Positions 6,298-30,367 of a DNA stretch of 64,000 nt are shown piece by piece; within the stretch, counting starts at the first letter, position 1, and every line of letters begins with the position of its first letter. Location of the stretch: positions 128,001 to 192,000 of the forward strand of contig CAXXXF010000016.1 of assembly GCA_963667175.2 (NCBI GenBank), in the 5' to 3' direction. Source of the DNA: Candidatus Latescibacterota bacterium (GTDB lineage: Bacteria; Latescibacterota; UBA2968; GCA-2709665). The notes under the pieces are model-generated. The model searched no databases. It was not told the DNA's origin and saw only the letters and a program-made list of their open reading frames with translations. Made by a program: the position numbers and the translations under genes.

Positions 6298-6352
6298 AAT
6301 TGCTTCCTTAATTCGCGATGGGCAGATTCTACTACTTGGAAAATAACATCGG

Positions 6353-6385
6353 AAACTACGAAACACGCGAAAAAAAAGAAAAATC
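6353..6385 (+). repeat. Solo copy of the ACTACGAAACACGCGAAA repeat
   Basis: aactacgaaacacgcgaaaaaa matches the core of the arrays flanking GxxExxY at 24.6-25.7 kb. Confidence 0.7.
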
Positions 6386-6538
6386 CGTGGCTGAAATCAA
6401 TTACGACAAGACGCCCGCATGCAGCGCATGGCACTGCGCAGGCGGGCGCAAAACCACAACGTTGCACTTCAGCCTGGCAATGCGACGATTTCCATCATTA
6501 TGGTCGCCCCAACGAGGCATGACAACTGTTTCGCTAAT

Positions 6539-18897: not shown

Positions 18898-20322
18898 GGG
18901 AATGTACCTATCTTAGTTGAAATAGAAGAGGCTCCGATGTAAATTGGATACGGTAGTCGCGAAATGAATACTGTATCCTCATACGAAAGGAGCCTGTGAT
19001 GGGCAAGGTATCATCGAAGTCTCGTGAAGTCAAGTTGAACACGGAAGGTGTTGTGAGGTCCAGGGCGGTTCCCGCGGGTATGCTGGAGGATGTTGACGTC
19101 CGTGTGGCCTTTATCCAGTCGCTGATCCCTCTGGGTCTGGCCGCCGTGGAGGAAATCTTGCAGAATGAGGTCGCCGCGTTGACGGGCAAGAGATACAGTC
19201 GCAAGACGTGCAAGACCCGGAATCGCCGGTGGGGCACGCAACGGGGATCGGTGTATCTATCGGACCAGAAAGTGCCCATGGACGTGCCGAGGGTGCGCGA
19301 CGTGGTAGCCAATGAGGAGGTGCCTCTACAGGCGTATCGCCGCTTGCAGCGCCCCAAAGACATGGACGAAGGGTTGCTGCTTCGCGTCCTGGGCGGCCTT
19401 GCCACGCGTTCATACGCCCGTTGCGCAGAGGCGGTACCCGAGGCGTTTGGCTTGTCTTCGTCGACGGTCTCGAAACGGTTCATGAAGGCATCGGCGGCCA
19501 AGCTGAGGCAGTTTCAAGAACGGTCGCTTGCCGGCTATGACCTGGTGGGGCTGTTTATGGATGGCAAGACCTTTGCCGATCAGCAGATGATCATTGCCCT
19601 TGGCGTGACCATACACGGGCACAAGGTCCCGCTGGGGTTCGTGCAGGCCGCCAGTGAAAATGAGCGCGTGTGCCGGCAGTTTGTCAATTCGCTCATTGAT
19701 CGCGGACTGCGGTATCACCAGGGGCTGCTGTGCCTCATCGACGGCTCGAAGGGATTGCGGTCCGCGCTGACCAAGGCCCTATCCGGATACGTCGCCATAC
19801 AACGCTGTCAGTGGCACAAACGGGAAAACGTGATCGCCTATCTGCCCAAATCACAGCAGGACGAGGTCAGAAAGGCCCTCCACGATGCGTACGACAAGGA
19901 GACCTACAACGACGCCAAAGCCGCACTCCAGGCCCTCAAACCCTCCCTGGCGCTGAGGAATGCAGCGGCACTGAACAGCCTCGAGGAAGGGCTCGAAGAA
20001 ACCCTCACCCTCCATCGGCTGGGACTCATGCCACAGCTCAAACAGTCGTTCCGCACCACCAACTGTATCGAATCCCTCAACGCCATGGTCGCTCAGCGCA
20101 CACGCAATGTAAAACGATGGAACAACTCCGATCAGCGATATCGATGGTTGGCAGCCGCCCTGTTGGATATACAGCCCCGACTGCGGAGAATCAAAGGATA
20201 TCGCTTTCTTCCCGTACTCAGACTTCCACTACAAAAACACCTCAACCTCAATCATGACGCGCAAGAGGCCTACGCCGCCGACTGAACGCCTCTCCTTTTT
20301 CAACTAAAAATAGTACTTGCCC
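18898..20322 (+). mobile_element. IS256-family insertion sequence
   Basis: ~35-bp imperfect TIRs (gggaatgtacctatcttagttgaaa / tttcaactaaaaatagtacttgccc); 8-bp TSD GTGTTGGC at 18890-18897 and 20323-20330. Confidence 0.93.
18996..20285 (+). CDS. IS256-family (Mutator-like) transposase
   Basis: VPRVRD, LFMDG, LIDGSKGL, QRCQWH, TTNCIES motifs. Confidence 0.93.
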   Translation: MMGKVSSKSREVKLNTEGVVRSRAVPAGMLEDVDVRVAFIQSLIPLGLAAVEEILQNEVAALTGKRYSRKTCKTRNRRWGTQRGSVYLSDQKVPMDVPRVRDVVANEEVPLQAYRRLQRPKDMDEGLLLRVLGGLATRSYARCAEAVPEAFGLSSSTVSKRFMKASAAKLRQFQERSLAGYDLVGLFMDGKTFADQQMIIALGVTIHGHKVPLGFVQAASENERVCRQFVNSLIDRGLRYHQGLLCLIDGSKGLRSALTKALSGYVAIQRCQWHKRENVIAYLPKSQQDEVRKALHDAYDKETYNDAKAALQALKPSLALRNAAALNSLEEGLEETLTLHRLGLMPQLKQSFRTTNCIESLNAMVAQRTRNVKRWNNSDQRYRWLAAALLDIQPRLRRIKGYRFLPVLRLPLQKHLNLNHDAQEAYAAD

Positions 20323-20401
20323 GTGTTGGCGTAAGGCGTCAAATAACGCGTGAAAGAGGTCTTTCCTGTCGAGTAGCATCATTTCGCATAGGCCTCGTTG
20401 A

Positions 20402-23400
20402 TTATACAGACGAAAGCTCTTCGACAAATCGAGGATCGATCGAGTATGTGGACGATATCCACTCATCAATTCCCCGCAAACGGCGGTCGGCGCACAACTC
20501 CGTTAGGTTCGGTGACATGAAGCGTTCCTTTACGGAGTTGGGTATATTCTTTTCGCCTGCGTCTCGATTGATACCGCGGACAAGCGAAGTGAAGGAAAAC
20601 AACTCCCTCAAATCAGCCCACTCGGCACCGATTCCTGACAGGAACACGAAGTCGGCTCTTCTCGTTAGCGACGACAGCTTCTGATAGTTGAAATTGCCGA
20701 TATACTTACCGGCGTTCTTCTTGAAGACAAGTGCGGAATACCTGTAATTGTGCAGCAACTCCCCGATAATTGCCAGTCGATGTAAGTGATCGTCCGGGAT
20801 TGTGTTTACCGGTGTAAGGAGATCGTCAAGCAACCAATTTGTGACGTGGAAGCCGTCACCCCGGGTCAGCCAATACCAAAAGCACGTGTCGCCGCCTGTG
20901 ATGGCGAGAGCCGCAAAGGCTTCCTCTTTCGAATGCAGACCCACCCAACCGGATTGCGACGGACCAAGAACACTGCGATCATCGGGATGTAATACTGGTG
21001 GCGGCTCGATATACGTGGAGATGAAATTGCGTGCAGTTGGCGAGAATCCCAACTTGAAAGAATTACGTCCGAGACGGCGGTCGGGAGTTAAACGTGACGT
21101 CGAAGACTGAATATGCATTGCTAACAATTTCGCCCCAAAACGGTTCGTAAGGCGGGGAATTCCGAAAGATTCATTCGGCATCACATCATGCACCTCGTTA
21201 TAGGAAAGATTGTCCAACAAAAAATCTCGATAGGCTGCGCGCCACCTGTATAGGCGGGTAGCGAACAAATCGGTTTTCTGCGCGGCGGAAGTAAGCCATA
21301 TCGTACATCTCTGGCTAACGCCAGAGAATAGCGCAGCCGGTATATTATCGAACGAAGAATGCCAATGCGTACCGGCGCCGGCCATAAGTTCACGTAGTTC
21401 CGAAAATTCAAAGCTAAAAGTCGTTGAAAGTGGGACAATTAACCCACAGCGTCCGCGCCGGCTCAGGATGCGGTGTGATTGTACGACAACGTAACCATAG
21501 ATATCGGGAAATTTTAGATTCTTAGTAGACCGGACTACATAGCCAACCGACCTGCGGTCTACGTACGGCGGATTTCCGACGATCACGTCAAACCCGCCTC
21601 CGTGCATGATGCCATAGAACTCCACAAACCAATGAAATGGCTGGTGGCTTGCGCACCATTGCTCGAAGGCCGTTTGGTCGCCGGTTTTGACGCCGCACTC
21701 ACCGGCCAGATATCGGTTCAACTGGTTACGCAGCTTATCAAGTCGCCCTCTCAGGTCGAATTTCGCACTTGCAAACGCATTCGCATCCATCTCGTGGTCG
21801 GTCTGCATTTCCTGGAACAGACGAAATGCGCGGTCCGCCAATTCGGCGCGTTCTTCGATTTCAGGGAGAGATTGTTCCTTGAACAGATCGCCCCTTACCG
21901 CCCGTCTTACGTCATCGAGAGACGTGAAGCCCACCAATGTGTTACCGGCACGTACGTTGAAGTCAATATCAGGCAAGGGCTCGATTTGCTCATAGTGTTC
22001 CAACTGTGCGACAAGTTTCAGGAAGAGGCGCAGCTTGCAGATTTCCACGGCTTCTTCCATGATGTCCACGCCATAGAGGTTGTTGATAATGATCGACTTG
22101 AGAATGAAATATCTCTCGCTGGGATGCGAGTCAACCTGCTTCAGAATCTTTCGGAAGTCGCTCATTTTTTCAGGGCGGTGCTTGCGTTGCGACCGCTGCA
22201 GATCATCCAGAAGCCCCCGCATTGCTTCGAGGCACGCGGTGTAGATCGGCTCCAGGATGTTGAGCGCGGCGAAGAGGAACGCGCCAGAACCGCACGTCGG
22301 ATCCAGAATCGACACGGCGGAAATCGCCTTCCAGAAGGCGCGGACCAGTTCAGGACCCTCGCTCCCCGAGATGACGTCCTGCGCGAATTTTTCGATATCC
22401 AGGTTGTAGGTGATCAGGTCGTTGATGGCCGTGACCTCACCCAAGGCGAGTTTGGCGTATACTTCCTCGTAGTGGCGCCGCCGTGCGACGTGCTCGCGCC
22501 AGGTTTCCGTTGGCAGGGCATAGTCGCCTGTCGCGGGTTCGTTCCAACCGTCGCGTTTTGCGACATCTTCCAGTCCTGCTGCGATTTCCGAAGGCAGGTC
22601 GCGCTTTCGCACAAGGTCTTCCTTCTTGTGGATATCGTACGTGATCCCGTGACGGACCGCTTCGTAGAAGTACCGATCCGACTCGTCCTGCAACAGAGAC
22701 CACACCCCTCCGTCGGCCCTGAATGCAATCGGGCACGACTTCCTCGCCCGATCGAACAGAAAGGGAATGATCGTGTTACGGCTGATGTATCCGGTAATGT
22801 CCTCTTTGGTGTAGTAGGCCCCCATCTGCTTCTGGTTGATGTACTTCTCGAAGATGTAACCCAGCACGTCGGGGTTGATTTCATTGTCCTGATGTAACGG
22901 CCGGTCGTCCAGGTGCCACGTATAGGCATCGAAAAAGTCGAAGATTCGCTCGAACGCTTCATCGGGTATTTCTATCTCTGGATTATCCCGCTCCAGATCG
23001 TGGACGTCGAACAGGCCGCCATTGAGAAAGGGCACCTTACCCAGCAGCGCCGACAATTCCGGAGAACGATTCGCCTCCGGCTGCCCCAGCCCTTCGTGGA
23101 ACAACTTCAACAGGAACAGCCTGTAGAACCTGTTGAATCGCCCGTTTCCATATTGCTGACGCACGCTTTGGAGGCGGTCGCGGAGATATTCGGTGTTGTT
23201 GTCGAGGAATCCGCGTTTCTGAATGAAGTAGATGAACATCATGCGGTTCAGCATCAGCGAGGCGTACCATTCTTTGTCGGCCAGGTCTCCGATCCCCTCG
23301 ATGAACCCCAGAAAGGCCTCGTGTTCCTTCTTGAAGCGGTCGTAGAACCGTTTGGTGACCTTCTCCACGTCGAAGGCTGCCCGAACGCGGCCGGATACGT

Positions 23401-23851
23401 CGACAATCGTCAGGTCTTCTTCTTCATCGAGTGTGAAGACGATGTTATCCAGCTTCTGAATGAGGCGTTCGCCGGTATCCCCTCGCCGGTACGACTCTGA
23501 TCGTTGCCGGTCGGGACGGCCCGGTTCGCGTTTTACCCATTGCCAGGACTGCTCGCCCTTGTCATGGGTGGCGTAGACGATGATGTGTTCTCGGACCTGT
23601 TTCGCGACGGCCTTTTCGATCTTCCTTCGGTTGGAATATTCGGGAATCGTCGTCTCGTCGCCAGAGACGTGTTGATAGGCGACCATGCCCCGTTTGTGGG
23701 CAATAGCTTTGAGTGTAAACGACCGCTCGCCGACATCAATGACCGTATCGACGCCCCCGTGGTCCCAGCCCAACTCCTCGATGAAGAGAGCGCGGAGGTT
23801 GAACTTGTCCAGATACGTCCTGACTCTTTTTCTGTTCAGAATTGAAGACAC
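20402..23851 (-). CDS. Large N6-adenine DNA methyltransferase (Eco57I/type IIG-like, gamma motif order)
   Basis: VPFLNGGLF, GAYYT, LDPTCGSGAFL (motif I), VGNPPY (motif IV), C-terminal putative target-recognition region. Confidence 0.9.
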   Translation of the reverse strand: MSSILNRKRVRTYLDKFNLRALFIEELGWDHGGVDTVIDVGERSFTLKAIAHKRGMVAYQHVSGDETTIPEYSNRRKIEKAVAKQVREHIIVYATHDKGEQSWQWVKREPGRPDRQRSESYRRGDTGERLIQKLDNIVFTLDEEEDLTIVDVSGRVRAAFDVEKVTKRFYDRFKKEHEAFLGFIEGIGDLADKEWYASLMLNRMMFIYFIQKRGFLDNNTEYLRDRLQSVRQQYGNGRFNRFYRLFLLKLFHEGLGQPEANRSPELSALLGKVPFLNGGLFDVHDLERDNPEIEIPDEAFERIFDFFDAYTWHLDDRPLHQDNEINPDVLGYIFEKYINQKQMGAYYTKEDITGYISRNTIIPFLFDRARKSCPIAFRADGGVWSLLQDESDRYFYEAVRHGITYDIHKKEDLVRKRDLPSEIAAGLEDVAKRDGWNEPATGDYALPTETWREHVARRRHYEEVYAKLALGEVTAINDLITYNLDIEKFAQDVISGSEGPELVRAFWKAISAVSILDPTCGSGAFLFAALNILEPIYTACLEAMRGLLDDLQRSQRKHRPEKMSDFRKILKQVDSHPSERYFILKSIIINNLYGVDIMEEAVEICKLRLFLKLVAQLEHYEQIEPLPDIDFNVRAGNTLVGFTSLDDVRRAVRGDLFKEQSLPEIEERAELADRAFRLFQEMQTDHEMDANAFASAKFDLRGRLDKLRNQLNRYLAGECGVKTGDQTAFEQWCASHQPFHWFVEFYGIMHGGGFDVIVGNPPYVDRRSVGYVVRSTKNLKFPDIYGYVVVQSHRILSRRGRCGLIVPLSTTFSFEFSELRELMAGAGTHWHSSFDNIPAALFSGVSQRCTIWLTSAAQKTDLFATRLYRWRAAYRDFLLDNLSYNEVHDVMPNESFGIPRLTNRFGAKLLAMHIQSSTSRLTPDRRLGRNSFKLGFSPTARNFISTYIEPPPVLHPDDRSVLGPSQSGWVGLHSKEEAFAALAITGGDTCFWYWLTRGDGFHVTNWLLDDLLTPVNTIPDDHLHRLAIIGELLHNYRYSALVFKKNAGKYIGNFNYQKLSSLTRRADFVFLSGIGAEWADLRELFSFTSLVRGINRDAGEKNIPNSVKERFMSPNLTELCADRRLRGIDEWISSTYSIDPRFVEELSSV

Positions 23852-23870
23852 CTGGATGTCCCCTGATGCG

Positions 23871-24329
23871 TCACGTCCGAACGAGATCGACCAGCGAAAC
23901 GGTGTCGATTTCGTCGAATCGCGCGAAGTCGTGCCGGTTCTGCGTTACCAGCCTTCGGATGCCACGGGTTGTCATTGTGGCGACGATATTGGCGTCATGC
24001 AACCCTTTGCCTTGAACGCCATATCTCAATGCAAGTTGGCGCAGATTGCCAGCGACCTCCTGGTTTTCGTCGAACAATTGAAGGTGACGCCGGAACTCAT
24101 CCACGTTTCCAACAACGTCGCGTACGTTCAGACCAAGACCGTTTGCACGAATGGGACGCGATGCGACTGCCATGTATTCCCTGAGAATCTGCCCACTTCC
24201 GGCGAGGCGAATACCGCGCCCGGGGGACTCGGCCAGTAGCCTTATTGCTTCCGCGTGTTGGCGTCGCGATTCGTCCGTCGCGGTCAAGAGGACGTTGGTG
24301 TCCAGAAAATGAAAATTACCGGCCATCAT
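23871..24329 (-). CDS. PIN-domain (VapC-like) toxin
   Basis: FLDTNVLL..QILRE..LHDANIVA..LVTQN..DF. Confidence 0.9.
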   Translation of the reverse strand: MMAGNFHFLDTNVLLTATDESRRQHAEAIRLLAESPGRGIRLAGSGQILREYMAVASRPIRANGLGLNVRDVVGNVDEFRRHLQLFDENQEVAGNLRQLALRYGVQGKGLHDANIVATMTTRGIRRLVTQNRHDFARFDEIDTVSLVDLVRT

Positions 24330-24588
24330 CGCCATAGATCTCATCCCGATTCCACGACGTCGTCTTTCCAGTCCTGACTGTCACCAGATCCAGCATCGGG
24401 ACATCCTCGTTTTTCGTGCCTGTCCCGTCCAACTCAGCAAGACCGGATTCATTATCGGACCTGGGACGAAGAACGAAACCGTCAGGCCCTTTCTCGATCT
24501 CAAGATGGTCTCCGGGACCTACCCGCAGCATGTTCAGCACCCGCTCTGGCAGGGTGACCTGGCCTCCTGAGCTTATCTTTACAATCAT
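24316..24588 (-). CDS. AbrB/MazE-type antitoxin
   Basis: VKISSGGQVTLP..LRVGPGD; overlaps the PIN gene. Confidence 0.85.
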   Translation of the reverse strand: MIVKISSGGQVTLPERVLNMLRVGPGDHLEIEKGPDGFVLRPRSDNESGLAELDGTGTKNEDVPMLDLVTVRTGKTTSWNRDEIYGDDGR

Positions 24589-24646
24589 GGGGACTTCCTT
24601 AAAACCGGATGGTGAGTAACCGAACCAGTAATAACGTTGCAATCAT

Positions 24647-24811
24647 GAAACAGAATCAAAGGCACGAACTACGAAAGACGCGAAATAGCGCGAAACAAGA
24701 TCAAAGGCTCGGACTACGAAAAACACGAAACAGAATCAAAGGCACGAACTACGAAAGACGCGAAATAGGATCAAAGGCATGAACTGCGAAAAATACGAAA
24801 TGGCACGAAAC
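24647..24811 (+). repeat. Tandem array of four 35-50 bp units (gaaacagaatcaaaggcacg-aactacgaaagacgc)
   Basis: Units start at ~24647, 24692, 24727 and 24762; the array ends just short of the GxxExxY stop codon. Confidence 0.9.
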
Positions 24812-24816
24812 GAGGT

Positions 24817-25203
24817 CTATCGTTCGTTTACGAAACGTTCGTGTTCTAATCCTTGATGATGGCCGAAATTGACGAGCAGGCCGAGTTTCACGCCTGTTGA
24901 TTTCAGGTAGTTGACAATTTGCGCGCGGTGTTCATCTCCCAGTTGTTTCACTGCTTTGATTTCCACGATAATCCTATCGAAACAGAAAAAATCCGGCTGG
25001 TAGAACTGTTTCAACGCCTGTCCTTTGTAATGTATTTTCAGGTCCATTTTCTCTTCGTACGGGATCGCCGAGGAATCGAATTCCATCGCAAGACACTCCT
25101 GGTAAACCGCTTCAAGAAAGCCGGTTCCCTTTTCCTTGTACACTTCAAAGCAGGCGCCGACAATCCGATAACTTTCCTCTTTGTAGACGATTTCTCCAGT
25201 CAT
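24817..25203 (-). CDS. GxxExxY protein (PD-(D/E)XK-like nuclease family)
   Basis: GFLEAVY, PDFFCFDRIIVEIKA, AQIVNYLK..GLLVNFG. Confidence 0.93.
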   Translation of the reverse strand: MTGEIVYKEESYRIVGACFEVYKEKGTGFLEAVYQECLAMEFDSSAIPYEEKMDLKIHYKGQALKQFYQPDFFCFDRIIVEIKAVKQLGDEHRAQIVNYLKSTGVKLGLLVNFGHHQGLEHERFVNER

Positions 25204-25740
25204 ACCTTTTGTGTCTTTCGTTGTTTATCGGACCCATAGTACAGATGATCCGGGGCGCCTGCGGTTCATCGTCCACTTCGACAACCTGAACGCCTCTCTG
25301 TAGACGATTTGTCCCTTATATCTTTCGCGTTTTTTCGCGCGTTTCGTAGTTGGTCTTTCTTTGTTTTTCGCGACTTACGCAGTCGATCTTTTCGTGTCTT
25401 TTCGCGTGTTTCGTAGTTAATATTTCTTTGTTTTTTTGCGTTTTTTCGCGTCTTTCGTAGTCAATCTTTCTTTGTTTTTTCGCGACTCTCGTAGTCAATC
25501 AGACCCATAGAACAGATGACTCTGCTGGACTCGTGCGGTTCGTCGTCCACTCAGACAACGTAAATGCCTCTCTGTAGACGATTCTCCAGTCATACCTTTC
25601 GCGTTTTTTCGCGTGTTTCGTAGTTAATGTTTCTTTGTTTTTTGCGTCTTTTCGCGTCTTTCCTCGTCTTTTCGCGACTCTCGTAGTCAATCAAGCCCAT
25701 AGAACAGATGATCCGCGGTTCCCGCGGTTCGTCGTCCTCG
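25204..25740 (-). repeat. Three degenerate tandem units of helicase 3' end + ACTACGAAA array + GxxExxY 5' end
   Basis: cccatagaacagatga/cccatagtacagatga at ~25233, 25504, 25696; tgtagacgat at ~25182, 25299, 25573; tttcgcg/tttcgtagt arrays in between. Confidence 0.88.
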
Positions 25741-28700
25741 TGCACGACACAGAGCCGCCCATCCTCCCATATCTCGATCACGACAGAAGCCAGATCCTCG
25801 TCGGAAATACCGCTTCGCAATTGCCGGTTCAGTGTATCCACGGTCGATTGCCGTAGCGGATATCGGTAGATCTCACCCACCGCCCGACGAAGTTGCTGTG
25901 TATCGAAGAGTGTGCCCTCGACACTCTCGGCATAGTTCTTCAGTCGTTCATAGGTACGGAACCTCGCGCCGGAAGGTCGTCCCAGTTGACCGCCGACCTG
26001 ATTCTCCTCGCGCGCGATCCGTTCCGCGGCCTTTCCGACAAGATTGTGATGTTTCTCGTGTCGGGGCAGTGCCGGTGTGTCCGGCTTGCATTCTGCCGCA
26101 CGCAGGATTTCAAACTGGCTTTCCGTGACACTGCTGCCTTCCCAATCCATCCACGCGAGGGCGTCGTTGTCCTGGGTTGTCCGCATGTAAACGAGTACGC
26201 CATTCTGCTGATTCTCTTTAGGCGAGGCGGCTTTGGAGGCGTGCACGACGTCCGGCATCTCCTCCACTGTTTTCTCCAGCGTCGGATCGGCAGTCGTGGC
26301 GTTTCTCCAGATCTGATAGGCATATGAAGCCAGGTCCACCTCGGAATCGTCGTCGCCGTCGAGGATTCCGGTCTGTTCGTTATACAGATCCACGACGGAA
26401 CGAGTGTCATCGTCCTCGAAAAAGGCCTCGTCGGTTCCCACCACTTCCGCGTTCTCGCCCAGGCGCTGTCTTACGCGGGCGCGTAACCGAATCACACGTT
26501 CGATGCCCTCGGCGGGAAGAAAGGAGTAACAGAGGATGTCCTGCGCCGACTGCCCGATGCGGTCCACGCGTCCGGCTCTCTGGATCAGCCGGATGATTGC
26601 CCACGGAAGGTCGTAATTGACGACGATGGCGCAATCCTGCAGGTTCTGTCCCTCGCTCAACACGTCCGTCGCGACCAGCACTCTGAGTTCCTCATCAGCC
26701 GCGATCTGCCCGCCCTTTTCATTGCTCCTGGGACTGAAACGCCAGGCCAGCTGAGTCGGATCCGCCGAACCGCCCGTAACGCCGGACAACCGTTCCATGC
26801 CCTCATCCCTGAGCTGACGTTCCAGGTAATGTACCGTATCGGCGAACTGCGTGAAGACCAGAACCTTGTTACGTGGATGCTTGTCCGCAAGGATCTTCTG
26901 CAGAGCGGCAAGCTTGGCGTCGAGCGACGGATTCCATTGGCCGAAGTCCTCCAACATTTCACGCAACGTTCTGGTGTCCGACAAAAGAGATTGCAGCAGT
27001 GACTCGCCGAAGTGACGCGGGCTGAGCCAACGAAATCGACTTCTGTATCGTTCGCTGTAATCAGTGTAAACTCTCGCGGCGTGCCGACGGAACTCTTCCT
27101 CGGTTCTTAGGGAGTATTCGGTCTGATTCTGGCCGCCTTCGTCCTCTCCTTCGTCAAAAATGTCACCGGCAGCGCCGTCCGCATCCTCGTCGTAAGATTG
27201 GGGATCCAGAATGCCGGCATCTGTCGTGCCGATCGGCAGATCGAGTCCGTTTTCGATGGCATGGATAAAGATGAAGTTCCTCAGCACGTGCCGCTCGATC
27301 GACAGCAGGAACGAATGACCGCTGCTTTCAAGGCGTTTGAACAAATTGGTACGGCAGAAGCCCATTAGGCGCCTTCCCGCGCGCGACAGGTCCTGCAGGA
27401 TTCGGTCCTCGGCAGAAGATGGCGGCGGATCGACCGACGACATCAGGTAGTTCGCCAGACCGTAGCGCGGGAGTTCCAATCCGTTGATGGCGGAAACCAC
27501 GTTGTCGTCGAAGAGCCGCGCGTACTGGTTGTCGATTTCGAAACCCACGGTTCGCGGAACGCGAACGGGGAAATAGGAGCGCGAGCCGTCTTCGAACGTC
27601 AGATACCTTCGTCCATTCGCCGAATCCAGCGTGGCGTAGTTCTCCTGAATAAAGCTGCGCGTGCGCCGTACGAGGTAGCGTCGCATCAATTCGCGCCAGT
27701 CGTCCGCGTATTCGGACTGTTCGAATGCCGCGAGCGACCGGACGTCCGCCTGGTGGCGGCGAATAAACTCGGTTTCTCCGACCTCGCGCAACAGGCGCTC
27801 GGGTCTGATGCCCAGGTCTTCATCCTCATGCACAAACAACCGGATCTGGTTTGAGAGATCGTGGTACGTCTTGTTGTACGGCGTGGCCGAAAGCAGAATG
27901 CACTTGCTCTCGTTCTCACGAATGTATTCCTGGATTGCGCGGTACCTTTTTCCCTCTCGATTCCGGAGATTGTGGCTCTCGTCAATGACAACCAGCCTGT
28001 AGCGTCGCATGTCGGGGAGTCTGTTGATCGCCCGGCTGATCGAAAGTACCCGCGCCCGCAATCGATACTCGTCGCGATAGTCCTCCCACATCGGCGCCAG
28101 ATTCTTGGGGCATATAATCAGCGTTTCTACCCCATAATCGTCTTCAAATACCCGCGCTAACGCCGTGGCCATCAGCGTTTTACCGAGTCCCACCACGTCG
28201 CCGATGATCACCCCGCCGCGTTTGTTCAGGTGATGCGCGGCGATCTTCACGGCGGCCACCTGGAAATCGAGAAGCTTGTTGCCGAAGTCGTTCGGAATTC
28301 GGAACTCAGTCAGACCCGCCCGGGCTTCCTGAGACAGGTGATAAGCCATCTTCACGTAAATGTGGTACGGCGGAATCAGTCGAGGCCCCGCCCAACTCTC
28401 GTCGATAATCTTGGTGAGTTCGTCCGAAATATCGATGCACCAGCGGTCGGACCAGCGATCTTCGAACCATTGCGCAAGCTTTTCGCAGGCATCGTGATCC
28501 ATCACGTCAACGTTCAACTCACCCTGCCGGGAAAGACCGGACTGCGTGAGATTGCTGCTGCCCAGGTATCCGATTGTAGGATTGATGGGATCCGGCCGGA
28601 ACAGCATGTAGAGCTTGGCATGGAGCGTGTGGCGAAGGTAGAGCTTGACCACGACCTTTTTCGCTTTAATCTGTGCTGATAGCCTGCGAAGTCCGGCCTC

Positions 28701-29036
28701 ATCTACATTATTTGGCGCACCGGTGGCTAACTGATCCCTGAATTCTTCCGCGAGCCGTTTCTTCAGGCGAAGCGCGGTCTGATTGTCGAGTCTTTCATCC
28801 CGAGCGATCAGACTCCTTGCAAGTCGAAACTCGTCGTGCGGCAACCGATGCATGCCCACCAGCAGCCGGCAACAGTGCCCCTCCCCACCCTTCCACTTTT
28901 CGACATATTCGTCAATATTCCGCCACCCACGCAGGTTGAAGTAGCCGACACAGAAGTCCGCACGTTCGGAAACCTCCATCGTCTCCTGAAGTGCAGGAAG
29001 AAGCGGCTGCTCAATATTGTCGAAAATTCGTGGCAT
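25590..29036 (-). CDS. PLD-like nuclease domain + SNF2-type SF2 helicase
   Basis: [14 protein letters not shown] (PLD-like), [33 protein letters not shown]. Confidence 0.9.
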
Positions 29037-30367
29037 CAGGAGATCTCACTATGTCGCTGGTTCGCAATCGCTTTACACCTCGGACATTTGGCAATACCAG
29101 ATATAGGTAAGTATCCTCCATCTGTCAACCGGCTATTGAGAATCCTCACTACCCTAATGACTACTAACTAGTTGGTAACAATATGCTTAACCCCACATTT
29201 TGCCGAGTTACTCCTTACGACGAGTGACGATTCGCACGTCGAAAAATCCAGAAGGAAGAATAGAAGAAAATGCCTTCCTGCGGAATCGACTACGTCACAA
29301 ATCGAAACCGTTCGTTTTGCCAGGCTCGTTCTTGGATGGTCCAAAACGAATCGGCCATTCAAGCAATTAACTTAAATGGCGTTGGACTAACAATACAATT
29401 GGCAAAAAAGCGTATTATAAAACGAATCACTAACCAGATGAACTGGCCAATTGCGGTGGGATATTTCTTGTTTTACAACGCGAAAACTTGCACGTGTTTC
29501 GAATCTTAGTTTCTGGGTCAGCGGCCGAGGACATCAAATACAGTTTGATATGGGATGATTGAACTGGTGCAGCAATGCCGCGTAAAGACCATCCCAACGG
29601 AAAGGAGAAACCGCACAATATTACTGGTTTTTCCCCAATCCTCCGAGGTAGTCAGGTATTGTAATAAGCACCTTTATCCGCTCCCTTTCTTCCGTGGTTA
29701 TACTGCGAGAGACAAACGGGAAGAGATATAACAGAAGCTTCTTCGAATTGTCCCATGCATCACTTGTGTAAGTCATTCCATTGTGTAGCATGTTGAATGT
29801 TGTCATGATCCATTTGATGTATACAATCGGAATTAGCAAGTCGGAAATGCTCGTCCATCGATCGGCAAGATCCTCGCGCCGGTATTGAGTCTTTAATGTG
29901 TCGTCGCACTGCCCTGTGCAACACCAATAGACATGCTCGCAATGCTCTTGCCTTCGTTGCCCTTCCCGATGACGTCGGCTCCACTCCACTACAATGCCAC
30001 ATGGTTTCGGTAGGAGAAGATTCTCCCCACAATTGGTGCATAACAGATCAGATTTCTCCATGTAGATATCTGCGGGTCTCGGATGGCACACTTCCCATTC
30101 GGCGTAGGATTTAGGGAAAAAGCGCTTCGCAAGCGCTAGCCCCTGGGGGGAACTAATACATTCACTTTCAATTCTCTCATGGTCGTACACCAAGATTTCA
30201 AACTGCGATTCGGATGCTTTAAGTACAGATGCAAGACCAGAACTTATAACGGTGGAGTAAAACCCAACAAAACCATCACAATTGTGAGTAGAAATACGAT
30301 CGTGAATATCGAGTTCGTCGCGCCCTACGTGCCAATATAGGGTGAGACAACTCCCCCTTCGAGATTA

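Follow-up and report, generated by a model that had tools for sequence, protein, structure and literature searches.

A GxxExxY nuclease gene between inward-facing arrays of a phased short repeat: a putative selfish cassette in a Latescibacterota operon

The stretch of DNA considered here, 64,000 nucleotides (nt) from Candidatus Latescibacterota bacterium (contig CAXXXF010000016.1, positions 128,001 to 192,000) and called the window throughout, holds an intact gene of the GxxExxY, or PDDEXK_3, family between two arrays of one short repeat. The gene encodes 128 amino acids and lies on the minus strand at 24817..25203. Its left, upstream array (25204..25692) carries the repeat core on the gene strand, and its right, downstream array (24643..24816) consists of four units with the core on the opposite, plus strand. 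This cassette sits between protein-coding genes, not in a 23S rRNA helix. The surrounding operon, a defence operon, runs entirely on the minus strand in the order helicase, array, GxxExxY, array, MazE, PIN and type IIG methyltransferase. The upstream host gene encodes a helicase-nuclease of the HKD/PLD-SNF2 type, with its native body at 25689..29036 (Pfam PLDc_2, SNF2-rel_dom and Helicase_C; PADLOC 'HKD+Snf2', E 1e-50). Downstream of the right array, a MazE/AbrB-type antitoxin gene (24316..24642; PF04014, E 1.6e-08) and a PIN-domain toxin gene (23871..24344; PF01850, E 6e-09) precede the downstream host gene, which encodes a type IIG-like restriction enzyme/methyltransferase (20402..23851; PADLOC REase_MTase_IIG, E 8e-286; Pfam Eco57I). 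An earlier note on this DNA had placed the element between the helicase and the methyltransferase of one operon; the operon is the same, but the MazE-PIN pair separates the cassette from the methyltransferase.

The repeat core, ACTACGAAANNCRCGAAA, matches the window ten times when at most one mismatch is allowed, versus no match in each of 100 shuffles. Three matches lie on the plus strand at 24668, 24713 and 24748, next to a fourth, degenerate unit at ~24783; six lie on the minus strand from 25333 to 25687; and one solo copy occurs at 6355. The two arrays are mutually inverted and face the gene (inverted pairs I1-I19), just as the earlier note had described them, with four units downstream and further copies of opposite orientation upstream. 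The unit is ~30 nt long and contains three direct CGAA sites at +4, +13 and +23, which are spaced by 9-10 nt, approximately one helical turn. It has no self-complementary arms and is not a palindrome, which agrees with the non-palindromic, ~9-nt-periodic character proposed for it before. The tandem periods are 35 nt on one side and 33 and 44 nt on the other (35-45 nt from unit to unit in the right array), with a sub-period of 10 nt, and the locus is bordered by TTGATTG and ATGATTG. The proximal unit of the right array begins 34 nt past the GxxExxY stop codon. Such spacing is fixed among the orthologues, in which the proximal unit lies at -31 from the ATG in five of eight and 34-39 nt after the stop codon in five of eight.

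The upstream copies are inverted, but they do not form a plain array. In addition to the six core matches and a degenerate proximal unit at 25204-25230, the left array includes two extra tandem copies of a composite segment (families D4-D7), built from a piece resembling the 3′ end of the helicase gene, repeat units and the first ~9 codons of GxxExxY. The GxxExxY 5′ fragments of these two pseudo-units are located at 25567-25593 and 25293-25314, and each is then followed by a helicase-3′-like piece, at ~25499-25556 and ~25231-25285, respectively. The helicase reading frame itself runs into the array and gains a tail, an observation of the earlier note that translation of the sequence bears out: the frame with its tail spans 25590-29036, and 25590..25688 (minus strand) encodes 32 repeat-derived residues, starting with DYESREK, and the stop codon. 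The native C-terminus, ...RIICSMGLI, is common to the alleles without the cassette. The TGA of the helicase overlaps an ATG (ATGA), and this ATG heads a truncated copy of the GxxExxY start.

The protein between the arrays is a clear member of its family, with 138.1 bits against PF13366 (cut-off 22; profile positions 2-116 of 117; E 2e-40) and 138.9 bits against TIGR04256 (cut-off 35; E 9e-41). PF13366 is its only Pfam match, and no Y1/HUH (PF01797), DDE, serine recombinase or tyrosine recombinase domain was found. The residues of the GxxExxY motif and of the PD-(D/E)XK site are present (G28, E31, Y34, D71, E81, K83). In 114 sequences E31, Y34, D71, K83, Q95, Y99 and N112-F113-G114 are invariant, and E81 is conserved in at least 90%. 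The AlphaFold2 model (mean pLDDT 94.9) predicts a minimal PD-(D/E)XK fold, nearest to the DUF820, Cas4 and lambda-exonuclease types of nuclease. The best structural matches are the DUF820-type protein 3ijm (VIA Z 7.7), Cas4 SSO0001, 4ic1 (Foldseek E 1.9e-4, TM 0.50; VIA Z 6.9), lambda exonuclease and nuclease domains from the N-terminus of type IIG enzymes; no match is close. A sequence search of solved structures gave no relative of the family and a single match, 2f8l, at E 0.013. As the fold searches return the general PD-(D/E)XK fold only, a specific function does not follow from them. Of 21 orthologue pairs, 20 have a ratio of nonsynonymous to synonymous substitution rates (dN/dS) of 0.08-0.17, and the remaining one, whose divergence is low, has 0.44; these values point to selection on the nuclease protein. 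In the literature searched, the name GxxExxY occurs only in passing, e.g., incidentally in a passage of PMC8934634, and TIGR04256 was not found; a table row of PMC3424549 lists PDDEXK_3 (PF13366) as of function unknown. No published description of a cassette with mirrored arrays was found in the main texts searched.

The core unit is dispersed through this genome (G000), with 72 matches in 51 clusters on 14 of the 18 contigs, versus 0 for a control pattern; the solo copies that the earlier note proposed to count genome-wide are therefore numerous. These dispersed units are mostly single and embedded in other recurring modules. The genome has only two PF13366 genes. The second, at C4:279098-279448, also lies between inward-facing arrays, which are built of CACAAAGACAC units and belong to a different motif (CACAAAGACACNAAGACAC, 30 matches genome-wide), and the 3′ ends of both its neighbour genes are tandemly duplicated. 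For both motifs, the two GxxExxY loci are the only places at which clusters contain both orientations within 1.5 kb. When the inverted 9-mers common to the two flanks are counted, the two genes score 13 and 12; as a background, at least 7 inverted 9-mers were found at 66 of 20,000 random positions of gene size and at least 10 at 17, and direct ones at 104. The arrangement has a further parallel in the genome. An S23p-like gene (PF05635, E 1.8e-19) at G000:C2:122746-123030 is flanked by short-period repeats of the GAAGAAGGAA type, with direct copies on both sides and an inverted copy further downstream, and may represent a second small-gene family using the same kind of repeat frame.

The mirrored layout extends to the relatives of this bacterium. 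PF13366 is present in 25 of 31 genomes of the order, this one included, from which 38 loci were fetched and 40 scored in all. Among the orthologues, which are 72-90% identical, the left array is on the gene strand and the right array inverted in all seven cases. Among the 40 loci, at least 7 inverted 9-mers were found at 16, at least 10 direct 9-mers at 13, and one or the other at 24. The motif class tracks the protein clade and not the genome: paralogues of one genome differ in their motif, and the second paralogue's clade retains its motif at L014, which comes from a different family and has different surrounding genes. Co-variation of arrays with protein phylogeny, which the earlier note suggested looking for, is in this sense seen among these loci. 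Since the loci are interrelated, this correspondence shows the joint inheritance of gene and flanks and not the recognition of the motif by the protein.

The genus sample of 15 genomes, nine of which carry the helicase, provides a series of alleles at one operon. The helicase junction holds an intact cassette in G000, G013, G007 and G009, in the last of which an internally deleted tandem copy lies beside the intact one. It is decayed or internally deleted in G006, G004 and G005; the decayed cassette of G006 lies directly between helicase and methyltransferase. It is empty in G011 and G003, where the helicase stops 4 residues past ...SMGLI and is followed by the antitoxin gene. An empty site, which the earlier note had proposed to seek in relatives, was found in this way together with decayed and relocated alleles, and presence or absence at one site, with flanks carried along, is an observed property of this junction. 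Relocated intact copies were found in three genomes: G003 has one between MazE and methyltransferase, G005 has one that lies within a truncated PIN gene ahead of a nucleotidyltransferase, and G004 has one on another contig, between a DUF2283-like gene (read from sequence, with no domain search) and the same nucleotidyltransferase. The same PIN/nucleotidyltransferase junction as in G005 is occupied in G001 by a copy that carries a stop codon, and in both genomes the PIN homologue is cut by the cassette copy after ~20 codons. The window has a nucleotidyltransferase gene of its own, and the solo unit stands at 6355 where the orthologues of G001, G004 and G005 have a full cassette.

Copies of the locus differ in length as well. 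The arrays vary in unit number, and tandem junction copies include host sequence, five of them in G007. The helicase orthologue beside this five-copy locus (G007:C1:5492916-5493665) is interrupted by an in-frame TAG in the 251 C-terminal residues that were matched. Relative to the window, contigs of the sampled sequencing runs show array indels of 10, 14 and 44 nt. A contig of run X1 links 23818 to 24668 with 30 other letters between them, so that MazE and PIN are skipped; in this variant the toxin-antitoxin pair is missing and the right array directly adjoins the methyltransferase start. A contig with the cassette cut out was not seen in the sampled runs, where the assembled contigs that were searched are uninformative on excision. 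After the cassette, the relatives L010 and L121 have two tandem antitoxin genes; compared with them over 24643-24700 of the window, the first antitoxin is here apparently deleted to its last few bases, so that the right array directly borders the sequence upstream of the second MazE gene.

The same organization was found far beyond the order. A locus search with a six-sequence alignment, a broader one being too diverse, yielded 80 named loci in Bacteroidota, Cyanobacteria, Poribacteria, Latescibacteria, Chlorobiota, Spirochaetes, Fibrobacterota, Calditrichia and others, a sample which leans to the 'GLLINFG' clade. Both 200-nt flanks were available for 72 loci. Taking the 99th percentile of displaced controls as the threshold for common 8-mers, inverted words exceeded it at 30 of 72 loci versus 7 of 860 controls, direct words at 27, and either kind at 44 (counted from rows). 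Oriented flanking arrays, described by the earlier note for one gene, are consequently a general feature, as they occur at both genes of this genome, at all seven orthologues and at considerable fractions of the other two samples. The typical ends consist of TCTGAAYCA followed by phased GATT. Elements of 475-773 bp with clean terminal inverted repeats can be delimited at 18 loci, and about half of these begin with TCTGAA. The cassettes follow the direction of their hosts: at the 66 loci where neighbour strands could be called, both neighbours are sense at 49, both opposite at 3 and mixed at 14. The neighbours themselves are varied and include RuvX/O-methyltransferase, hsdR/hsdS, histidine kinase/TPR and an EVE-domain gene. 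The hsdR/hsdS case is L107, as determined by domain search, whereas the upstream gene ends of L001, L002, L005 and L018 were read as type I R or M genes with no domain search. Type I restriction-modification operons hold several cassettes, after hsdR or hsdM and before hsdS (L107, L001, L002, L005, L018). L107, on a contig of a Saprospiraceae metagenome-assembled genome, has an imperfect direct repeat of ~10 nt, and ~10 nt from the 3′ end of its hsdR gene are found again immediately past the far end of the cassette.

The locus is best explained as one copy of a widespread family of small cassettes, in which a PD-(D/E)XK gene of ~125 residues lies between inverted arrays whose motif recurs about once per helical turn. 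The interpretation preferred here, with a probability of roughly one half, is that of a selfish nuclease cassette embedded in an operon, with the phased inverted arrays serving as putative protein-binding ends or cis-acting sites. According to this model, the cassette would have first entered the helicase-methyltransferase junction, and its gene would be expressed by read-through from the host operon. Neither a sigma-70-like promoter nor an intrinsic terminator was predicted on the gene strand of the cassette, which, together with the sense bias, fits read-through expression. The arrays would be the binding sites of the nuclease, probably as a multimer, and their role would be comparable to that of transposon ends with several binding sites or of the sequences recognized on either side of a homing nuclease gene. 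The enzyme might then drive the copying or retention of the cassette through DNA cleavage followed by recombination, which would account for the adjacent host DNA travelling with it. Nothing in the analysis shows the nuclease spreading the repeats.

Several observations weigh against this interpretation. First, binding, cleavage and movement were not directly observed. Second, the cassette is mostly inherited vertically with the operon and is under purifying selection, a pattern that a host-useful gene would fit too. Third, the S23p-like gene encodes no nuclease and has similar short-repeat flanks, so that such flanks may not be specific to the GxxExxY nuclease. Fourth, the units occur in genomes without the matching gene (e.g., 25 in G010 and 17 in G012). 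Fifth, 28 of the 72 cross-phylum loci have no common flank words by the measure used, and a consistent target-site duplication was not seen at the 18 clean ends. Finally, the relocated copies in the genus keep ~45 nt resembling the helicase 3′ end, and the filled allele is without ~62 nt that are present in the empty one. These last differences imply that the ends are not clean transposon ends in this lineage, and the carried flanks make the movement look like recombination or conversion and not like clean cut-and-paste. In a bolder form of the model, which is considered unlikely, a new class of mobile elements in prokaryotes would rely on GxxExxY as its only enzyme; it would assemble on the phased end arrays, excise or copy the cassette of ~0.5 kb into operon junctions and, in lineages such as this one, also seed gene-less units.

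The main rival explanation regards the gene as passive cargo. In this scenario the arrays are generic recombination-prone repeats, and the GxxExxY gene, whose protein has an unrelated role, is a passenger of homologous or microhomology recombination. The dispersal of the unit over 51 clusters is what such a process would leave, and the unit is surrounded by many other short-period modules of the intergenic regions; 16-mers that occur at least five times cover ~216 kb of the genome, a figure from the 16-mer mask that is for descriptive use only, a 12-mer mask being too permissive. The movement of host flanks with the cassette, the tandem duplication of junction segments at both GxxExxY loci, the indels of repeat-unit size and the similar flanks of the S23p-like gene point in the same direction. 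However, generic repeats would not be expected to recur in the same layout, with other motifs and clean inverted ends, around this one family across phyla, even where gene-less copies are almost absent. The fixed distance of the proximal units from the start and stop codons and the different motifs kept by paralogues of one genome also argue against mere cargo, and the explanation is considered unlikely, even though it is the strongest of the rivals.

The earlier note had compared the locus with a RAYT/REP-like system, in which GxxExxY may bind, cut or spread the repeats. In such a system gene-less units would be dispersed through the genome, with the flanked gene as the master copy. The layout, which resembles a REPtron, and the dispersal of gene-less units for both motifs support the comparison. 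The presence of few units in the genus genomes with no PF13366 match (2 in G002 and 3 in G008) is also compatible with it. Nevertheless, the enzyme class and the shape of the unit are different, host DNA is carried and no consistent target duplication was seen. The copy numbers do not clearly follow the gene either: the counts are 72, 4 (in G013), 13, 37, 30, 29, 10 and 9 in genus genomes with the matching gene and 2, 8, 3, 25, 0, 17 and 10 in those without it, the genomes being related and not independent. In G011 the count is 0; its four PF13366 matches all fall outside the matching clade. In five Bacteroidota genomes with 2-6 PF13366 matches each, the end motif, searched with a narrow pattern, was matched only 8 times in total, and 5 of these matches were at cassettes. 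Moreover, the solo units of this genome are parts of other composite modules, and inverted pairs are confined to the two genes. The genome also has another candidate for such a role. A GC-rich, hairpin-type word, CCTGCCTGC, is present with its complement in 566 copies, often as hairpin-like pairs beside the dispersed modules. Three weak Y1-transposase-like open reading frames (ORFs) lie away from the cassette, and one of them (G000:C7:62956-63120) has this word on both sides; the word and the Y1-like ORF may constitute a genuine REP/RAYT system that is independent of the GxxExxY cassette. A RAYT/REP-like role of GxxExxY is accordingly regarded as improbable.

Side by side with these repeats, the intergenic DNA of the genome displays further structure. 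Some of its stretches, 0.5-1.3 kb long and with a G+C content of 40-50%, are mosaics of short-period modules, e.g., at C15:868378-869260, C4:341000-341700 and C6:309300-309700. The modules include runs of GGACAGGAT, of CAGGATT and of CAGC-GGTCAGC, and they yield long false ORFs with low-complexity translations. The G+C content per codon position, calculated in order to orient solo units relative to genes, failed to separate true from false frames and was dropped. The solo unit of the window (30 nt, plus strand, core 6355-6372), located upstream of the nucleotidyltransferase gene, belongs to a dispersed element of ~200 nt at 6332..6531, in which one CGAA-phased unit is combined with two hairpins, a short one (GTGGC...GCCAC) and a GC-rich one. 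This element recurs in the genome and across the genus; a 1.4-kb query around 6332-6531 gave 35 matches in G000, many of them to the stretch of ~200 nt.

The arrays could also act at the level of RNA, pairing in the transcript and being cut, e.g., by RNase III, which would free the mRNA of the cassette and leave the host operon insulated, as in the ORF-carrying intervening sequences of 23S rRNA. The sense orientation in operons (49 loci versus 3) and the missing promoter-like and gene-strand terminator-like sites are in line with such an element, and in the minimum-energy fold of 24640-25420 (minus strand) the two arrays pair with each other. The fold is, however, not clearly better than that of shuffled sequence, with z = -1.57 and one of 20 shuffles folding as well. 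The arms were aligned for 27 of 113 loci over 1244 positions, and 89 of the 157 arm mismatches are transversions; G-U-compatible mismatches are not in excess on the sense RNA (26, versus 42 on the antisense RNA). The arms retain the motif and its phase and not the spacers, which are non-complementary, and the numbers of units are unequal between the arms, a combination that speaks more for arrays of sites bound by protein than for a conserved stem. No Rfam family matched positions 20000-30000 of the window at E ≤ 1. Processing of this kind is considered very unlikely. The least probable of the rivals is a host-useful accessory gene of a defence operon, such as a nuclease regulated via the arrays as operators and aiding the restriction system: the cassette is kept with its operon and several homologues lie in the restriction-modification operons named above, but others stand beside unrelated genes (RuvX/O-methyltransferase, histidine kinase/TPR), the gene is lost or decayed at the junction in five of the nine helicase-operon genomes (with the intact copies of G003 and G005 elsewhere in the operon and that of G004 on the other contig), and the PADLOC match of the nuclease is weak (E 0.0025).

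If the gene and the arrays form one functional unit, a large family of unknown function (PF13366/TIGR04256) acquires a role that can be tested. A selfish cassette of this kind would add a very small and widespread element, living in defence as well as housekeeping operons, to the known mobile elements. Should the sole-enzyme version also be true, an orphan family of many phyla would gain a function and a class of dispersed short-period repeats an explanation. The genus is suited to such tests because one operon is represented in it by a natural series of alleles, some intact or decayed and others empty or relocated, and the many gene-less units of this genome make the link between repeat and nuclease directly testable. 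The cassette also makes sense of several features that would puzzle an annotator: spurious basic tails on adjacent genes, false short ORFs in the arrays and differences in array length between strains.

The enzyme of the cassette resembles Cas4, RecB and lambda exonuclease in its fold and in the D...ExK and QxxxY residues. It differs from them in being about half their size, in the absence of an Fe-S cysteine cluster and in an identity of only 13-18%. With respect to Cas4 in particular, the invariant GxxExxY columns include no Cys quartet, and the neighbours are not cas genes.

At the level of the whole element, four systems can be compared. The intervening sequences of 23S rRNA have inverted termini. 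Those with an ORF (S23p; Coxiella, Leptospira), as a passage of PMC4990558 describes them, are likewise selfish inserts of ~0.4-0.5 kb with one short sense ORF in a transcribed unit. The S23p-like gene of this genome, with its comparable repeat flanks, adds to the likeness. In contrast, the host of the cassette is a junction in a protein-coding operon, its ORF is a nuclease and it bears no signature of selection for an RNA stem. The free-standing homing endonuclease genes of phages are nuclease genes situated between conserved genes, patchy among relatives and co-carried with their flanks. The cassette is similarly lodged between genes, present or absent among relatives, and takes flanking host sequence along. 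The difference lies in its inverted motif arrays at both ends, which homing endonuclease genes are not known to have.

Like the cassette, the third system, the REPtron (RAYT with REP/REPIN), has one small gene set between short repeats in inverted orientation. In this genome the likeness extends to the intergenic dispersal of the flanking repeat family and to the assignment of different repeat classes to different paralogues. RAYT is, however, an HUH/Y1 transposase and not an enzyme of PD-(D/E)XK fold, and REP is a hairpin or imperfect palindrome, whereas the cassette unit is a non-palindromic triple of phased CGAA sites. Gene-less copies of the cassette repeats are, moreover, not generally dispersed, and a clear link between copy number and gene was not seen. 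The fourth comparison is with terminal-inverted-repeat transposons and miniature inverted-repeat transposable elements. In contrast to these, the cassette encodes a single nuclease of 128 residues, no consistent target-site duplication was seen and its ends, in this lineage, drag host DNA. In Tn7 and Mu, each inverted end contains several binding sites of the transposase. The cassette resembles such elements in the phased multi-site organization of its inverted ends, in the outermost TCTGAA conserved in many phyla and in the occurrence of internally deleted copies.

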